From an uncultured Planctomycetia bacterium (GTDB lineage: Bacteria; Omnitrophota; Gorgyraeia; VGKH01; JBHPFN01), in assembly GCA_964406665.1 (NCBI GenBank), contig CAYOSQ010000009.1, positions 6,106 through 70,105 on the forward strand: 64,000 nt of DNA. The letters are read 5' to 3'. Positions within the stretch are counted from its first letter, which is position 1; every line of letters starts with the position of its first letter. The position numbers and the translations under genes are program-made. Below are positions 21,417 to 37,559 of this stretch, piece after piece. Under the pieces are notes generated by a model. It was not told where the DNA came from. It ran no database searches and was given only the letters and a program-made list of their open reading frames with translations.

Positions 21417-21613
21417 GAATTCCGGGGACACACCCACGAGTGCTGCTCACTAAAGTTCGCAAGCTCGGGTACGTACTCTGTAGGAAACACCAGCTCACGA
21501 TGTTCGCTGGTGCGACGAGGCCTTTGGCCTCGAACGAAGCTAGGAAATCAATCGTCGGGTATGTACTCTGTGATTGATAAAGGGGGCGCGGTCCGATTAG
21601 GGCCGCGCCCCCT
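21417..21613 (+). repeat. Composite intergenic structured repeat (family modules 1 and 2 plus a GC-rich hairpin)
   Basis: GAATTCCGGGGACAC is a half-palindrome. Module 1 is CACCCaCGAGTGCTGCTCACTAAAGTTCGCAAGCTCGGGTACGTACTCTGT (21431-21481). Module 2 is AACACCAGC..GCTGGTGCGaCGAGGCCtttGGCCTCGAACGAAG..AATCAATCG (21486-21553). A GGGGGCGCGG...CCGCGCCCCC hairpin lies at 21581-21613. Near-identical modules occur at 30184-30241 and 31456-31595. Confidence 0.7.
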
Positions 21614-31455: not shown

Positions 31456-31595
31456 AAGTACGTACACCCTTCGAGTGCTGCTCACTAAAGTTCGCAAGCT
31501 CGAGTACGTACTCTGTGGAAACACCAGCTTGCTGAGAAGCGCTCGCTGGTGCGTCGAGGCCTTTGGCCTCGAACGAAGTCAGAAAATCAATCGAT
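31456..31595 (+). repeat. Structured repeat modules 1 and 2
   Basis: Module 1 is AAAGTACGTACACCCTTCGAGTGCTGCTCACTAAAGTTCGCAAGCTCGAGTACGTACTCTGT. Module 2 is AACACCAGC..GCTGGTGCGTCGAGGCCtttGGCCTCGAACGAAG..AAATCAATCG. Both are near-identical to 21431-21553. Confidence 0.7.
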
Positions 31596-33129: not shown

Positions 33130-34128
33130 TTGAAAAAAGGAAATAGAATTGTATGTTTTTCTTTGTTGGTTAGTATCACTCTATATGCATCCGAGGTTTA
33201 TGCTAAAGGAAAATTATTGGACAGGATAAGAGATAGGATAGAGAAAAAGCGCAGCCAGTGTACAGGTCTTAAAGAAGACAGGGAAAGAATGCCGGGGGAT
33301 TATGATTATTCTCTTAAGCATAATGGGAAGAAGAGAACCTACAAACTGCATGTCCCTCGGTCTTATAGCGGCCGGCCCACCGCTCTTATTTTGGCTTTTC
33401 ACGGAGGCATGGGCTCTGCAGAAGTTATGTCAAAATATTATGGCCTGAGAGAAAAATCAGATAGGCAAGGTTTTATAGTTGCGTTTCCAAATGGGGCAAG
33501 CAGATTGCCAACAGGAAAATTTGCCACCTGGAACGCAGGCAACTGCTGTGGTTATGCTGTTGAGAGTCAGAGCGATGACGTTGGTTTTATAAAAGCGGTT
33601 ATTGATGATATCAAAAACAAGGTAAACGTTAATAAGGTATTTGCAACCGGAATGTCCAACGGGGGTATGTTGTCATATCGCCTTGCTTGTGATATGTCTG
33701 ATACATTCTCTGCGATTGCCGCTATTTCAGGAACAGATAATTATGATGAATGTAATCCGACAAAGCCAATATCAATTATGCACATTCATTCTTTGCAAGA
33801 TTCGCATGTGCTTTATAAAGGGGGCTGTGGTCCTGATTGTCTCGTAGGGGGTGAGACTGAGTTTGTTTCAGTACCTAAGACTATTGCTAAATGGGTTAAT
33901 ATAAACCAGTGCAACAAAAGTCCTAGAAGAGTGTTTCAGAATGAGAATGCTTTTTGTGATGAGTATTCAGGCTGTAAAAGTAATGTGACTGTAAAAGTTT
34001 GTACAACAAGAGATGGTGGGCATTCTTGGGCTGGGGCAAAAAAAGTGCCAAATCCTCTTGAAAAAAATTCCCCTTCACAATCAATAAATGCAACAGACGA
34101 AATCTGGAAGTTCTTTAAGAATCAATAA
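33130..34128 (+). CDS. Secreted esterase of the PHB-depolymerase/LpqC family
   Basis: It has a TTG start with an AAGGAG RBS and a signal peptide. The motifs are LILAFHGGMGS, AFPNG and GMSNGG (nucleophile elbow). Confidence 0.65.
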   Translation: MKKGNRIVCFSLLVSITLYASEVYAKGKLLDRIRDRIEKKRSQCTGLKEDRERMPGDYDYSLKHNGKKRTYKLHVPRSYSGRPTALILAFHGGMGSAEVMSKYYGLREKSDRQGFIVAFPNGASRLPTGKFATWNAGNCCGYAVESQSDDVGFIKAVIDDIKNKVNVNKVFATGMSNGGMLSYRLACDMSDTFSAIAAISGTDNYDECNPTKPISIMHIHSLQDSHVLYKGGCGPDCLVGGETEFVSVPKTIAKWVNINQCNKSPRRVFQNENAFCDEYSGCKSNVTVKVCTTRDGGHSWAGAKKVPNPLEKNSPSQSINATDEIWKFFKNQ

Positions 34129-34165: not shown

Positions 34166-34197
34166 AAAAGTACGTACTCGAGTACGTACTTTTTTTA
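34166..34197. terminator. Bidirectional terminator formed by a 28-bp perfect palindrome with a GTACGTAC core
   Basis: AAAAGTACGTACTCGAGTACGTACTTTT is followed by TTT. It sits between convergent genes. Confidence 0.7.
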
Positions 34198-34240: not shown

Positions 34241-34323
34241 GATTGATTCCAGCTAATTTATGTCAGCGACAGCAGCTAGTTATTATTCAAAAACGTCGCA
34301 GCCATAAGCTAGGGAATCAATCG
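34241..34323. repeat. Long hairpin repeat related to 30357-30410, overlapping the 3' end of the minus-strand gene
   Basis: GATTGATTCC..AGCTAATTTATG...CATAAGCTAG..GGAATCAATC. The outer stem shows a compensatory A/T to G/C change relative to GATTAATTCC/GGAATTAATC. Confidence 0.5.
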
Positions 34324-35120
34324 AGATGCGGTTCTAAACTGCGCATTTTATCAATGGTAATTTCTGGAACTTCGTAGGTGCCGTCTCCAGGCACAGGCGG
34401 GTATTGAATAAAGTATTCCTTAACTAGCTCGTCATAAGTTTTATAAGCTTGTGTATATAGTTTTAATCCTGCTAAGGCATCTCCTAAGATATCGAGTCCT
34501 AGCAGAGAATGTTTATCAATTGCCAATACTGAATCTGCAATTTTTTTTGCCTCTGCAAAATTACCTCTTATTAAAGCGTAACGGCCGTTTTTAACCAGGT
34601 GATTTATTTCATTGTCCCTCCGAGCATTTGCTATAACTGGTAAGTTCAGAGAGTTACTTTCGGCATTATCAATCGTTGCGGATAAGGAATAGTTGTCGGG
34701 CTTAAGTTTTGCAGTTTCCTGGGGTGTAATATAGAACACATGTTCAATAGCATTGACCTCATCAAGGATAACTTTATTTTCTGTGACCGCAGTTGCTTGG
34801 ACATCGATTTTAACAATATTGTCCTGGCTGTCGCGTAAGGTAAACTTTATACCTTTTATCCAGGATTCTTTATTAGTGCCTAACTGGGTGTGAATAATTT
34901 TTTTATCTTCATTGCCGTAGGCAATATTTTGATAGTAAGCATTCATTGCATCAGGATTAGAGAGGATAAGAAAAATAATTATTGGTTCACCGGGCTGAAA
35001 GCCTTTAGCATTTATTGCTACATCATAGTAAATTACGGTTTTCAAATTGGCAGCGTAAGCTGAATTGATTGATAACAATAAAAGCCCGATTAAAAGAAAT
35101 AAGATTATTTTTTTCATCAT
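34317..35120 (-). CDS. Secreted hypothetical protein, translationally coupled to the upstream metalloprotease gene
   Basis: The signal peptide is MMKKIILFLLIGLLLLSINSAYA. There is an ATGA overlap with 35117..37237. Confidence 0.55.
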   Translation of the reverse strand: MMKKIILFLLIGLLLLSINSAYAANLKTVIYYDVAINAKGFQPGEPIIIFLILSNPDAMNAYYQNIAYGNEDKKIIHTQLGTNKESWIKGIKFTLRDSQDNIVKIDVQATAVTENKVILDEVNAIEHVFYITPQETAKLKPDNYSLSATIDNAESNSLNLPVIANARRDNEINHLVKNGRYALIRGNFAEAKKIADSVLAIDKHSLLGLDILGDALAGLKLYTQAYKTYDELVKEYFIQYPPVPGDGTYEVPEITIDKMRSLEPHLD

Positions 35121-37237
35121 TTGTCATTTACCCTCATTTGCCCCAGACAGTTACCTCTGTTGGCGTTTCCGCCGACTAAGCCGCCACTATTATATCCAGT
35201 ACCGGTTGAAAAAGTACAGAAAGCTGCTCCATCAGGATCTCTGGGCCAGCAGCCAAACATCCCTGCGTCAGAAAAAACTTCAAAGAAACGACAGTATTTC
35301 ATAACACAGTTTACATCTCCGCTTTGTTGAGATCCTTTAGGGTGGAATCTAAAATCATGAGGAAGTCTGTGTCCGCAAAGGTATAGAGGAGGTGATCCTG
35401 TCCAATATCTATAAGATGTCCTTATTGCAGCAGAGGCTCTGTTGTTGTAAGCAGCGCTGCTTTCAGGGGAATAGATCGTAGTTTTTGCCCAGGGTGCTTC
35501 TCCGTGATGCCAGACGCAAGTAGAGTGGCCCAGTTCGTGAGCAGCTATGCGTGGTGTCCAGTGATTTAATACTGTGGCAGTAACATTTATCGGCGGTCCC
35601 ATAATGCCTTCGTTGATTCTCATTTGCATTGAGCGGCCACCTATGTTTGTTGGGATTTCGCCGGAATTCATTTTCAGAATAAGACCGTGTTGGGCTCCGG
35701 TTGTGGCATGACCTCTATTAGGATTTCCCACTCTGCGTCTTAATTCATTATTTGCTACTAAATGGCACATTATGCCTGATGTAGGGTAATGCCCGATACC
35801 CCTGCCGGTTCTGTCATTTATTAACAGATCCTTGAAGTCTGTATGGAATCTGGTCTGAGAACCTTGTACAAAAAAGCCTCGATACTCTTCGTAGTTTGAG
35901 TATCCGTCACCATCATGGCCGTCTAAATTGGGGGTGTTATCATTATCATTTGTAGCTGGTGCACCATTTTTATCCTGAGGGGCTGAATCAGCAATTTTAT
36001 TATTGTTATCATCAAGAGGAATCGAGACTGGTCCGTTGGGAGCGATATCTTCACAACCCTCGGCACTTGCTTTAATAAATCCGAAAGAGCCATAGTCATT
36101 GCTGGTAACTGTAACAGTTGCAGTAGTGGTTAATCTTTGAGTTTCAGCAGTTGTATAGAAACTTCCTCGCCCACCGCCTAAAAGAAATCCCGGCATAGGT
36201 TCATTAAAATGAAGATCAGGCTTGGTCTGAAAACCTTTGTTAAGGCAAACACCTTTTTCATTAGAAACACGGCTTAAATCAAATTTTATTCTACGTGGCG
36301 GACCTGGATATACCCAGCCTTGTCCGCCGACCCATCTATAGGTTCTTGCAGTAAATCTAACCATATTATTTTCTTCTGGTAACCAAGCAGCAGGACATTT
36401 AGTTATATCTATGCCAATACGAAAAACTTCAGGCGGAGGTGTTACGTCTGGTTCTTCAGGTGGAGTTGGTTCTGGGCCAGGATCAACCGGATCTTCTGGA
36501 GGAGCTGGTGGGACAGGTGGCGTTGGTTCTGGCTCTGGTTCGGGTTCTGGTGTAGGCTCAGGCTCAGGCTCGGGTTCTGGTTCAGGTTCAGGAGTTGGAG
36601 CAGGAGCGGGAGCAGGCGCAGGCTCAGGTTGTTCATCACAAGGTTTAACTTTAAAATTAGAGATTGAAACACTGTATAGCCGAGGCATCTTCCCTGAATT
36701 AACATCATCACAACAGGCTCGAACATCTTCAACTATAAGATGTCTTTCTCTGGGGTCAGTTGATTTGACAGTAATTCTAATACAGCGGCCAAGATCGCCG
36801 CTAAAAGTATGACTGGAGTAAGGTGGGATTATCACGGTTTGCCTGCCGGCATCTGAAGTTATGGTTACTTCTAAATTACGCCTTCTCTCCCAGCGGTTTT
36901 GAATGGTGATGTTTTCGAATTCGCAACAATCACTTTCAGGAGGCGCAACTGAGGGATATTCTGGCCGGGAATTATCAATAATAATTACCGGCGGAGCACC
37001 CAAATGATGTTTTTCGGTAGTTGTGCCAATAGGAAGATTCTCTGTTCCAAAAGTGAAAGGTGATTCGCCAGTAGTAGTGGCTGGAGTTGAATCAGGTGTG
37101 CTTGCTGGCGGTGGCGAAGAGCCATGTTCCTCAGAACAGCTTGCAAAAGTATTAACAGTATAAGATATAAATAGGAAGCTAAAAAGAAAGAGACAGGAGA
37201 AAACTTTTTTGAAATGAGGTTTTAATATACTTTTCAC
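35117..37237 (-). CDS. Lipoprotein with a metzincin-like zinc-metalloprotease motif, a Cys-flanked N-domain and a (PE)n/PAPAP linker
   Basis: A signal plus lipobox-like ..TFASC is present. A CC...CC-bracketed domain follows. The linker is PEPAPAPAPAPTPEPEPEPEPEPEPTPEPEPEPEP. A thrombospondin-type-3-like Asp-rich segment is NDNDNTPNLDGHDGDGYSNYEEY. HELGHSTCVWH fits HExxHxxxxxH. Confidence 0.6.
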   Translation of the reverse strand: MKSILKPHFKKVFSCLFLFSFLFISYTVNTFASCSEEHGSSPPPASTPDSTPATTTGESPFTFGTENLPIGTTTEKHHLGAPPVIIIDNSRPEYPSVAPPESDCCEFENITIQNRWERRRNLEVTITSDAGRQTVIIPPYSSHTFSGDLGRCIRITVKSTDPRERHLIVEDVRACCDDVNSGKMPRLYSVSISNFKVKPCDEQPEPAPAPAPAPTPEPEPEPEPEPEPTPEPEPEPEPTPPVPPAPPEDPVDPGPEPTPPEEPDVTPPPEVFRIGIDITKCPAAWLPEENNMVRFTARTYRWVGGQGWVYPGPPRRIKFDLSRVSNEKGVCLNKGFQTKPDLHFNEPMPGFLLGGGRGSFYTTAETQRLTTTATVTVTSNDYGSFGFIKASAEGCEDIAPNGPVSIPLDDNNNKIADSAPQDKNGAPATNDNDNTPNLDGHDGDGYSNYEEYRGFFVQGSQTRFHTDFKDLLINDRTGRGIGHYPTSGIMCHLVANNELRRRVGNPNRGHATTGAQHGLILKMNSGEIPTNIGGRSMQMRINEGIMGPPINVTATVLNHWTPRIAAHELGHSTCVWHHGEAPWAKTTIYSPESSAAYNNRASAAIRTSYRYWTGSPPLYLCGHRLPHDFRFHPKGSQQSGDVNCVMKYCRFFEVFSDAGMFGCWPRDPDGAAFCTFSTGTGYNSGGLVGGNANRGNCLGQMRVNDK

Positions 37238-37480
37238 AATAATAATATTGAGAGATAATTAGGTAAGCTGTATTTTACTATTGTCTTATGAGCTTGTCAA
37301 GAGGGCTTGTTAGTTGGGCTGTTCGTTAACGGCTTTTGACTACGCCCCGCAAAAAGCGCGGGATTGCTCCCTAAGATAAATCTTAGGGAGACTATAGTGA
37401 CTACAGTCTTTCTAAAGCTTGCTTTAGGAAGCCCTAAAGAATTGGGCTTTACCCTAATAGTTCCCTGTGGGACGTAGTTT

Positions 37481-37511
37481 CAAGAGTACGTACCTTAAGT
37501 ACGTACTCTTG
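37481..37511. repeat. Perfect 13-bp-stem palindrome with a GTACGTAC core
   Basis: The sequence is CAAGAGTACGTACcttaaGTACGTACTCTTG. Confidence 0.6.
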
Positions 37512-37559
37512 AATAATAGTTATATACTTCTTTCCTTAATAGTGCTATTATGGGCTATT

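Follow-up and report, generated by a model that had tools for sequence, protein, structure and literature searches.

The stretch of DNA analysed here (the window) is 64,000 nt long and corresponds to positions 6,106-70,105 of contig CAYOSQ010000009.1, from assembly GCA_964406665.1 of an uncultured Planctomycetia bacterium. On its reverse strand lie two overlapping genes encoding proteins of 706 and 267 amino acids (Table 1), which on balance we take to be a self-contained bicistronic operon for a two-part extracytoplasmic proteolytic module, the first gene product being the protease and the second, the partner, its dedicated subunit. An earlier note, made from the letters of the DNA, had placed this pair at the same coordinates, and an open reading frame (ORF) listing agrees with it; the same pair occurs in public gene calls on five of the six independent metagenome contigs that carry the locus. 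The note was also right that the protease stop codon and the partner start codon overlap as ATGA, the overlap being 4 nt and the junction ...GACAAATGATGAAA... / ...AAATGATG....

The pair is a predicted discrete bicistronic unit, bounded by a promoter-like site and a terminator-like hairpin. The promoter-like site, the best-scoring one of the region, lies some 35 nt 5' of the GTG codon of the protease gene. The hairpin is a 12-bp palindrome between the partner stop codon and a convergent esterase gene.

Table 1. Features of the protease-partner locus; positions are those of the window, residues those of the respective protein
Feature	Position (nt)	Strand	Basis or remark
Protease gene, 706 aa, GTG start	35117..37237	-	ORF and public gene calls; metzincin-like, not covered by curated families
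Signal peptide and lipobox, residues 1-34, predicted lipidated Cys34	37136..37237	-	Sequence reading; Cys kept in close homologs
Cys-rich N-domain, ~residues 100-200, CCEF...C.RI...CC...C	36638..36940	-	phmmer; closest clade only
Pro/Glu-Pro/Ala low-complexity tether, residues 201-272	36422..36637	-	Partly encoded by imperfect hexanucleotide repeat 36524-36628
Immunoglobulin (Ig)-like beta-sandwich, residues 273-405, part of family core	36023..36421	-	AlphaFold pLDDT mostly above 94; Foldseek
Asp/Asn-rich connector, residues 406-455, DxNxNxIAD and DxDxxPxGDGxxGDG...YEEYRGF	35873..36022	-	Conservation; modelled
Catalytic domain, residues 456-706	35120..35872	-	Profile and structural neighbours metzincin
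Zinc motif HELGHSTCVWHH, residues 567-578 (H567, E568, H571, H577, H578)	35504..35539	-	96-97% conserved
Candidate Met-turn SGDVNCVMKY (S639, G640, C644, M646, Y648)	35294..35323	-	91-97% conserved
Partner gene, 267 aa	34317..35120	-	ORF; 4-nt overlap with protease gene; conserved neighbour; fused in P0191
Partner signal peptide MMKKIILFLLIGLLLLSINSAYA, predicted cleavage after AYA	35052..35120	-	Sequence reading
Two tetratricopeptide (TPR) repeats, ~residues 170-237 of partner	34410..34613	-	Profile match; Pfam TPR_2
Promoter-like site, sigma-70 type: TTGACA, 17 nt, TAAAAT	37272..37300	-	11/12 matches; consensus match only
Palindromic hairpin AAAAGTACGTACTC/GAGTACGTACTTTT, terminator-like, bidirectional	34166..34193	-	A and T runs on its flanks
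Inverted repeats with GTACGTAC core	34166-34193, 37481-37513, 21467-21478, 31502-31513

Is the 706-aa protein a peptidase, and if so of which kind? The zinc motif with HExxHxxxxxH spacing that the earlier note had reported, HELGHSTCVWHH, is present in the C-terminal domain, and over 282 distinct family members H567, E568, H571, H577, H578 and G579 (HExxHxxxxxHHG) are conserved at 96-97%. A conserved Met-containing turn, suggested by the note as a check, lies downstream of the third His; its pattern SGxxxC[IV]MRY is conserved at 91-97% and M646 itself at 91%. Conservation of these motifs is far beyond chance. Compared with all PDB chain sequences, the family profile matched metzincins only, adamalysins best (E 4.8e-4) and after them serralysins, myroilysin, ulilysin, matrix metalloproteinases (MMPs) and ADAMTS, in alignments that span the preceding strand, the active-site helix and the third His. 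A sub-profile running from the helix to the C-terminus gave a nearly identical list of metzincins and paired the G-x-x-x-C-I-M-R of the family with GASLCIMR of adamalysin II, which we take to be the Cys-Ile-Met Met-turn of that enzyme; in HMMER this stretch is sub-threshold by itself. The metzincin-like call made in the note holds at the level of sequence profile and, weakly, of fold (PDB profile search, Foldseek neighbours and HExxHxxxxxH spacing), and the 706-aa protein is very probably a metzincin-like zinc peptidase.

The note had seen no family match, and none was found in Pfam, NCBIfam or PADLOC. The window protease has no Pfam match even at E up to 1 and in NCBIfam only far-below-cut-off matches to its linker, and neither protein matches a PADLOC anti-phage defence model at E up to 0.1. 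Matches to SslE, TonB and proteins like them were confined to the Pro-rich linker and were dismissed as compositional. No curated profile was reached among those of the described metzincin families (M10, M12A, M12B, M43, M54, M57, M64, M66, M6, M7, M8 and others). A search with residues 265-706 returned 77 homologs; no Pfam domain is recorded for any of them, and the source name, where there is one, is always 'hypothetical protein'. When 58 members were scanned singly against Pfam, isolated sub-threshold matches appeared, mostly to metallopeptidase models (M10, astacin, two reprolysin models, SprT-like and M48), single members matching M10, Astacin or Reprolysin at E 4e-4 to 1e-2.

By an exhaustive profile search the family has 3,756 cluster representatives (50% identity) at E <= 1e-3, 1,989 of them at E <= 1e-30, and in species-representative genomes at least 415 loci were confirmed by a single peptide pattern. 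Bacterial carriers belong to Planctomycetota (the closest, at 58-75% identity), Omnitrophota, Acidobacteriota, Bacteroidota, Verrucomicrobiota, Aminicenantes, Armatimonadota and other groups, and archaeal carriers to Nitrososphaerota, Geothermarchaeota and Bathyarchaeia. We read the family as a genuine but strongly divergent metzincin-like one that lies outside any described family. The exact 706-aa protein, with V or M as first residue, is absent from a collection of 15 billion protein sequences and did not turn up in the search for its homologs, the best of which is 65% identical, whereas the 267-aa partner is present at 100% identity.

Does the partner gene travel with the protease gene? 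The neighbourhoods compared were those of the best 80 of at least 415 loci. A single-sequence search of them placed a relative of the partner immediately downstream in about 30 loci. With a profile, about 66 of 85 non-redundant loci, archaea included, showed a same-strand homolog immediately downstream, with full-length matches (E 1e-26 to 1e-118) in many phyla; the pairing proposed in the earlier note, which hinged on the 267-aa gene being present at homologous loci, is therefore upheld. BLAST clustering of neighbouring ORFs left protease and partner as the only two broadly conserved families. No third conserved gene emerged, an OmpA-like neighbour being confined to 13 loci and all remaining clusters being antisense-ORF artefacts or limited to at most 7 loci. 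The two genes lie between -20 and +40 nt apart in 45 of 61 pairs, with a 4-nt overlap in nine, and pairwise divergences of protease and partner are correlated (r = 0.76; 0 of 999 Mantel permutations as high).

In one homolog (P0191) the two are a single polypeptide, protease residues 21-716 being followed by a full partner domain at 750-996 (E 3.9e-51). This fusion is encoded identically on five contigs, and no separate partner gene lies downstream of it. Export signals are mostly concordant as well: in most bacterial pairs both proteins have a signal peptide, lipobox or signal-anchor, and short core-only proteases without an export signal (~470-520 aa; L009, L010, L025 and L043) pair with signal-less partners, which suggests a cytoplasmic form of the module. 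Because export signals mostly agree and a natural fusion exists, we favour a physical partnership, and the partner is likely, on this comparative evidence, to be a dedicated binding subunit of the protease.

Four observations weigh against this conclusion. The neighbourhood sample is biased to closer relatives. Nineteen loci have no detectable partner, and after setting aside five with too little downstream sequence about 14 assessable ones remain. The divergence correlation could be explained by co-inheritance alone, and falls to r = 0.26 among distant pairs. Finally, in three archaeal pairs (L019, L039 and L051) the protease has an N-terminal hydrophobic segment and the partner has none.

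Some neighbourhoods differ in other ways. The pair is kept in relatives of Chitinophaga and Bryobacter, and Pseudoflavitalea sp. G-6-1-2 (L087) lacks the partner. Three Chitinophagaceae loci (L061:5921-6322, L082:5970-6332 and L092:5976-6338) lack the TPR partner and have a gene for a secreted protein of 120-133 aa downstream instead, with the shared motif ...GNVxDxxGKxIxNAxIIAIDSxKN...GKYxIxVKAAGF...; from its position this small protein may be a lineage-specific replacement partner. At another locus a 48%-identical protease homolog has a gene for a CsgG-family lipoprotein (L008:1117-1899) as its immediate upstream neighbour. This gene and the OmpA-domain neighbour of the 13-locus subset (for instance L011:4970-5923) hint that in some lineages the setting is the outer membrane or the cell surface.

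The partner consists of a signal peptide, an N-domain of ~145 residues, two TPRs and a capping segment with a conserved E-P-P motif. Most bacterial partner homologs, which range from 230 to 500 aa, have hydrophobic N-termini. By itself the window partner gives weak TPR matches (E ~0.1); the profile of the partner family matches consensus TPR structures with a per-repeat E of ~1e-12 over profile positions 207-271, and Pfam TPR_2 is found in 22 of 35 homologs. Outside the TPR region, profile searches of PDB and Pfam gave no match, and a relationship between the N-domain and the beta-sandwich of the protease was rejected (hhalign probability 0.3%). A single-sequence search with the window partner found three homologs in a large protein set; a profile search of 5.8 billion proteins was uninformative, its five matches being swamped by generic TPR words. 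Many homologs (e.g., L019, L037 and L062) have an E/K-rich helical hairpin inserted at about alignment columns 133-170 (...GEISEEEYE...), with weak Pfam matches to SHOCT and GvpG; this insert is not in the window partner.

What, then, does the partner do? The earlier note had offered inhibitor, chaperone or substrate. Substrate is the least likely role, because of the P0191 fusion and the mostly agreeing export signals. By analogy with known systems we slightly favour an adaptor or activator; an inhibitor or latency factor would be nearly as likely, and a chaperone or anchor a weaker third.

TPR proteins that serve envelope proteases provide the precedent for an adaptor. In E. coli the envelope protease Prc depends on a TPR partner, NlpI. 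In Pseudomonas aeruginosa the TPR protein LbcA binds and governs the envelope protease CtpA (PMC6050968, PMC8764530, PMC11021448), and the M48 metallopeptidase BepA carries a TPR domain of its own (PMC8423444, PMC7950410). Like these systems in outline, the pair described here would join an exported protease to a TPR protein, and one of the two proteins is usually membrane-tethered by prediction; the P0191 fusion mirrors the architecture of BepA. The proteases themselves are unrelated, being serine C-terminal processing proteases or an M48 gluzincin-type enzyme in those systems and metzincin-like here. LbcA and NlpI are moreover all-TPR lipoproteins, whereas the window partner has two TPRs and a novel N-domain and is translationally coupled to its protease; to our knowledge the genes for LbcA and NlpI do not adjoin their protease genes.

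The strongest competing explanation makes the partner a cognate inhibitor or latency factor that, one-to-one, blocks the active site in the envelope of the producer until release. Tight adjacency and translational coupling suggest stoichiometric co-production, both proteins share a compartment, and the partner evolves faster than the catalytic domain (mean pairwise identity 22% against 32%). Specific metallopeptidase inhibitors that are co-transcribed with their target are documented: the potempins of Tannerella forsythia are beta-barrels of 98-132 residues encoded upstream of the peptidase (PMC9890683). As with potempins and the serralysin inhibitors (Inh/AprI), a peptidase gene here adjoins a small gene for an exported or lipoprotein partner. 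Unlike potempins, the window partner is encoded downstream, has 267 aa and TPR repeats, shows no similarity to them and belongs to a pair that spans many phyla. Known inhibitors of this kind are single beta-barrels of ~100-130 residues (PMC9890683), whereas the partners have 230-500 aa and scaffold-typical TPRs; sequence and profile comparisons gave no similarity to any peptidase-inhibitor family, potempins and serralysin Inh included. A permanent C-terminal fusion without a separate gene fits a regulatory domain better, although a role like that of a cleavable pro-domain is possible. Inhibition is a serious possibility, if less likely than not.

A second explanation, which we rate as quite unlikely, has the partner act outside the working enzyme as a folding or export chaperone, or as an anchor, for maturation or localisation of the protease. 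TPR proteins are often chaperones; many partner homologs have an uncleaved signal-anchor or lipobox that could hold a soluble protease at the membrane, and the three archaeal partners without an export signal would suit a chaperone that acts before export. In the window pair, however, it is the protease that is predicted to be lipid-anchored and the partner that is soluble, so anchoring cannot be the general role, and the P0191 fusion keeps the partner domain permanently attached.

To return to the dedicated subunit and the protease it would serve, residues 265-706 gave a very confident AlphaFold model (mean pLDDT, the predicted local distance difference test score, 94.1; pTM, the predicted template-modelling score, 0.89), which indicates that the beta-sandwich and the C-terminal domain form one rigid unit. 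A Foldseek search with this two-domain model returned only matches to the sandwich: the nearest folds were the CLIPPER stalk domain (9ifr, E 9e-5) and the F-spondin reeler domain (E 3e-4), in a range extending to 1e-3, with a target-normalised template-modelling score (TM) of ~0.49. Since such matches describe the accessory domain and not the enzyme, the catalytic part was re-predicted alone. Between the two, the models suggest, sits the Asp-rich connector, which is confidently modelled only when the sandwich is included. The Asp-rich segment IPLDDNNNKIAD...NDNDNTPNLDGHDGDGYSNYEEYRGF had been likened in the earlier note to a calcium-binding repeat; it is present, and across the family its GDG motif is conserved at 95-98% and YEEYRG at 91-98%. 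No curated calcium-binding model in Pfam matched it; from their resemblance to EF-hand, dockerin and thrombospondin-type loops we infer that these motifs are putative calcium-binding loops.

The AlphaFold2 model of the catalytic domain alone (pLDDT 86.7, pTM 0.85) is compatible with the metzincin plan in its order of elements, in which five strands lead to the HExxH helix and a long insert, holding one extra helix, precedes the Met segment and short C-terminal helices; its lower half is unusually beta-rich. In Foldseek 48 of its top 50 neighbours are metzincins, among them myroilysin, ADAMTS-1/4/5, snake-venom enzymes, MMP-1, astacins, meprin, fragilysin and ADAM33. Certain features fit a metzincin poorly. 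The structural similarity is weak (best E 3.9e-3 and none below 1e-3, TM 0.16-0.37, large root mean square deviation), and the helix at the usual position of the backing helix is very short. The earlier note had remarked on a Cys where metzincins usually have Gly; this is true of the window protein, and is one variant of a family-wide departure, position 574 being Asn in 46% of members, Gly in 25%, Ser in 10% and Cys in 5%, so that the canonical Gly is replaced in 75%. The weak structural scores, the loss of this Gly and the failure of every curated peptidase model to reach threshold lend something to the view that the catalytic-looking domain is no peptidase but a zincin-like binding fold or a non-peptide hydrolase with a superficial metzincin resemblance. 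We consider this very unlikely. Conservation of the three His, the Glu and the Met stands at 91-97% over different phyla and domains of life, and all significant or near-significant sequence matches are active metzincin peptidases. A pseudo-enzyme would normally have lost catalytic residues, and here every one of them is retained in bacteria and archaea alike, which speaks against that possibility.

Taking the protein as a metzincin-like peptidase, where does it stand among known ones? Adamalysins and reprolysins (M12B; adamalysin II, BmooMPalpha-I, BaP1 and ADAMTS-1) are the best profile matches, through the pre-helix strand and AHELGH..(x)5..H, and are among the top structural neighbours, with TM only 0.2-0.3. 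Unlike reprolysins, the family reaches threshold with no Pfam reprolysin model, one of 58 members matching each of two such models at E 0.006-0.01. Its motif is HExxHxx[N/G/S]xxHH against HExxHxxGxxHD in adamalysins, its third His and its Met lie some 68 residues apart against ~20 in snake-venom enzymes, and, unlike adamalysins, it has a beta-rich C-terminal subdomain with the beta-sandwich and Asp-rich connector fused ahead of the enzyme. The top structural neighbour is the bacterial, astacin-type myroilysin (E 3.9e-3, probability 0.89), and profile alignments to serralysins, BMP-1 and myroilysin reach across the Met region. In the SxMxY turn of astacins and serralysins the Tyr is a fifth zinc ligand, and the spacing of M646 and Y648 matches the Met-x-Tyr of that turn. 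Unlike astacins and serralysins, the window protease has no above-threshold Pfam Astacin or M10 match and no RTX or other typical C-terminal domain. Nor is a propeptide cysteine switch apparent: Cys331 in the conserved GxCLN loop of the sandwich, the likeliest residue for one, is conserved in just 61% of members (Ala in 26%), and latency by this route was rejected as a general mechanism.

The N-terminal region is more lineage-specific. The lipoprotein signal proposed earlier reads as MKSILKPHFKKVFSCLFLFSFLFISYTVNTFAS|C34 (...VNTFAS-C34), which accords with a PROSITE-type lipobox rule, and a Cys at this position is retained in close homologs (P0001, P0002, P0004 and P0005). Residues 35 to ~95 are Ser/Thr/Pro-rich. 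The Cys-bracketed N-domain of the earlier note is real in that C104/C105, C152, C175/C176 and C200 are conserved across the close clade; phmmer matches it to P0002, P0004, P0005 and L021 at E 1e-19 to 1e-34 and to P0172 at 1e-11.

The Pro/Glu-Pro/Ala linker was located as the note had described it. The DNA repeat behind it proved less regular than the 'near-perfect' one claimed there, for Tandem Repeats Finder gives arrays of period 6, 12 and 30 only at 36524-36628, with 71-84% matches. Nor did the suggested variation in length by slippage appear when contigs were compared as the note had advised, the linker being identical in six of six: five contigs from different samples are identical to the window over all 2,921 nt of the operon, and the sixth (L005), from a strain that differs by about 0.7% elsewhere, keeps this linker unchanged and has its sole indel outside it. 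This indel, the loss of one A from an A5 run (L005:651-2770; window ~36254), breaks the protease gene into ORFs of 352 and 359 aa and may reflect either a natural frameshift or a mistake in sequencing or assembly. Between species the linker varies in length and composition (PE in the window protein, PT in P0001, PK in P0002 and P0004), which is ordinary drift of a low-complexity tether and marks no contingency locus. That the (PE)n linker is such a locus, with slippage tuning the reach of the protease from the membrane, is highly improbable: short-period DNA repeats do encode it and it does differ between species, but synonymous interruptions at 71-84% unit matches hinder slippage and the linker is unchanged in the five identical contigs and the diverged strain, so that for this population the idea is largely refuted.

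How might such a module work? The protease would be lipid-anchored through Cys34, with its Ser/Thr/Pro- and Pro/Glu-rich tethers holding it off the membrane. By analogy with metzincins, H567, H571 and H577 would bind zinc, E568 would serve as the general base that activates water, and M646 in the C-[IV]-M-R-Y turn would pack beneath the metal site; Y648 and H578 could each supply a fifth ligand or contact the substrate or transition state. The Asp-rich loops may bind Ca2+ and brace the sandwich against the catalytic domain. Through translational coupling the partner would be made in step with the protease and, once exported, would bind it, serving for docking, as an adaptor or as an activator and governing the timing or the targets of proteolysis.

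A bolder reading, which we put forward tentatively and hold to be less likely than not, is that the window carries the founding example of a widespread, unrecognised two-component protease system, made up of a new metzincin family and an obligate N-domain/TPR partner. The protease core of beta-sandwich, Ca-loop and catalytic domain would have been kept from Planctomycetota to Nitrososphaerota, the partner would switch the enzyme on or deliver substrates to it, and exported, membrane-anchored, cytoplasmic and fused versions would all be forms of one module. A literature search found no description of a matching family or of a metzincin-TPR operon; it found TPR-partner arrangements for a few unrelated envelope proteases and none for metzincins. 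The protease family and its near-obligate pairing therefore appear new, while metzincin proteases, TPR partners and protease-partner operons each have precedent.

Metzincins (MMPs, ADAMs, astacins and serralysins) are among the best-studied protease superfamilies, and yet a branch comprising thousands of clusters, from soil, sediment and marine bacteria and from archaea, appears to be uncurated and unnamed. That a coupled TPR partner is nearly always at its side suggests a subunit built in for control or targeting. No principle is overturned; the family would be an addition to peptidase classification and would annotate thousands of 'hypothetical proteins', and its two genes, confident model and natural fusion would make the gating of a zinc protease by a partner protein tractable to study.

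Turning to the surroundings of the operon, the convergent neighbour (33130-34128, forward strand) codes for a secreted esterase, which scores above cut-off with the model for extracellular short-chain polyhydroxyalkanoate depolymerases of type 1 (NF050058, E 5.9e-49); by clustering of neighbouring ORFs other lineages do not keep it beside the protease. Opposite the linker, on the forward strand, a Gly/Ser-rich ORF of 133 aa (36411..36812) mirrors the Pro/Glu repeat as its reverse complement and was rejected as a gene.

A scan of the whole window against Rfam gave no match. Five inverted repeats in the window share the self-complementary core GTACGTAC (consensus GAGTACGTACTC), where chance would give 0.02. 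Two of them bracket the operon: the downstream one is the terminator-like hairpin, and the upstream one is a perfect palindrome, CAAGAGTACGTAC-CTTAA-GTACGTACTCTTG, in a divergent intergenic region. These repeats could be a repetitive extragenic palindromic (REP)-like element or an operator. The window also contains a direct repeat of ~125 nt (21430-21554 and 31464-31593, ~87-90% identity); each copy holds the GTACGTAC motif and a GC-rich hairpin (GAGGCCTTTGGCCTC), and the second copy is intergenic.

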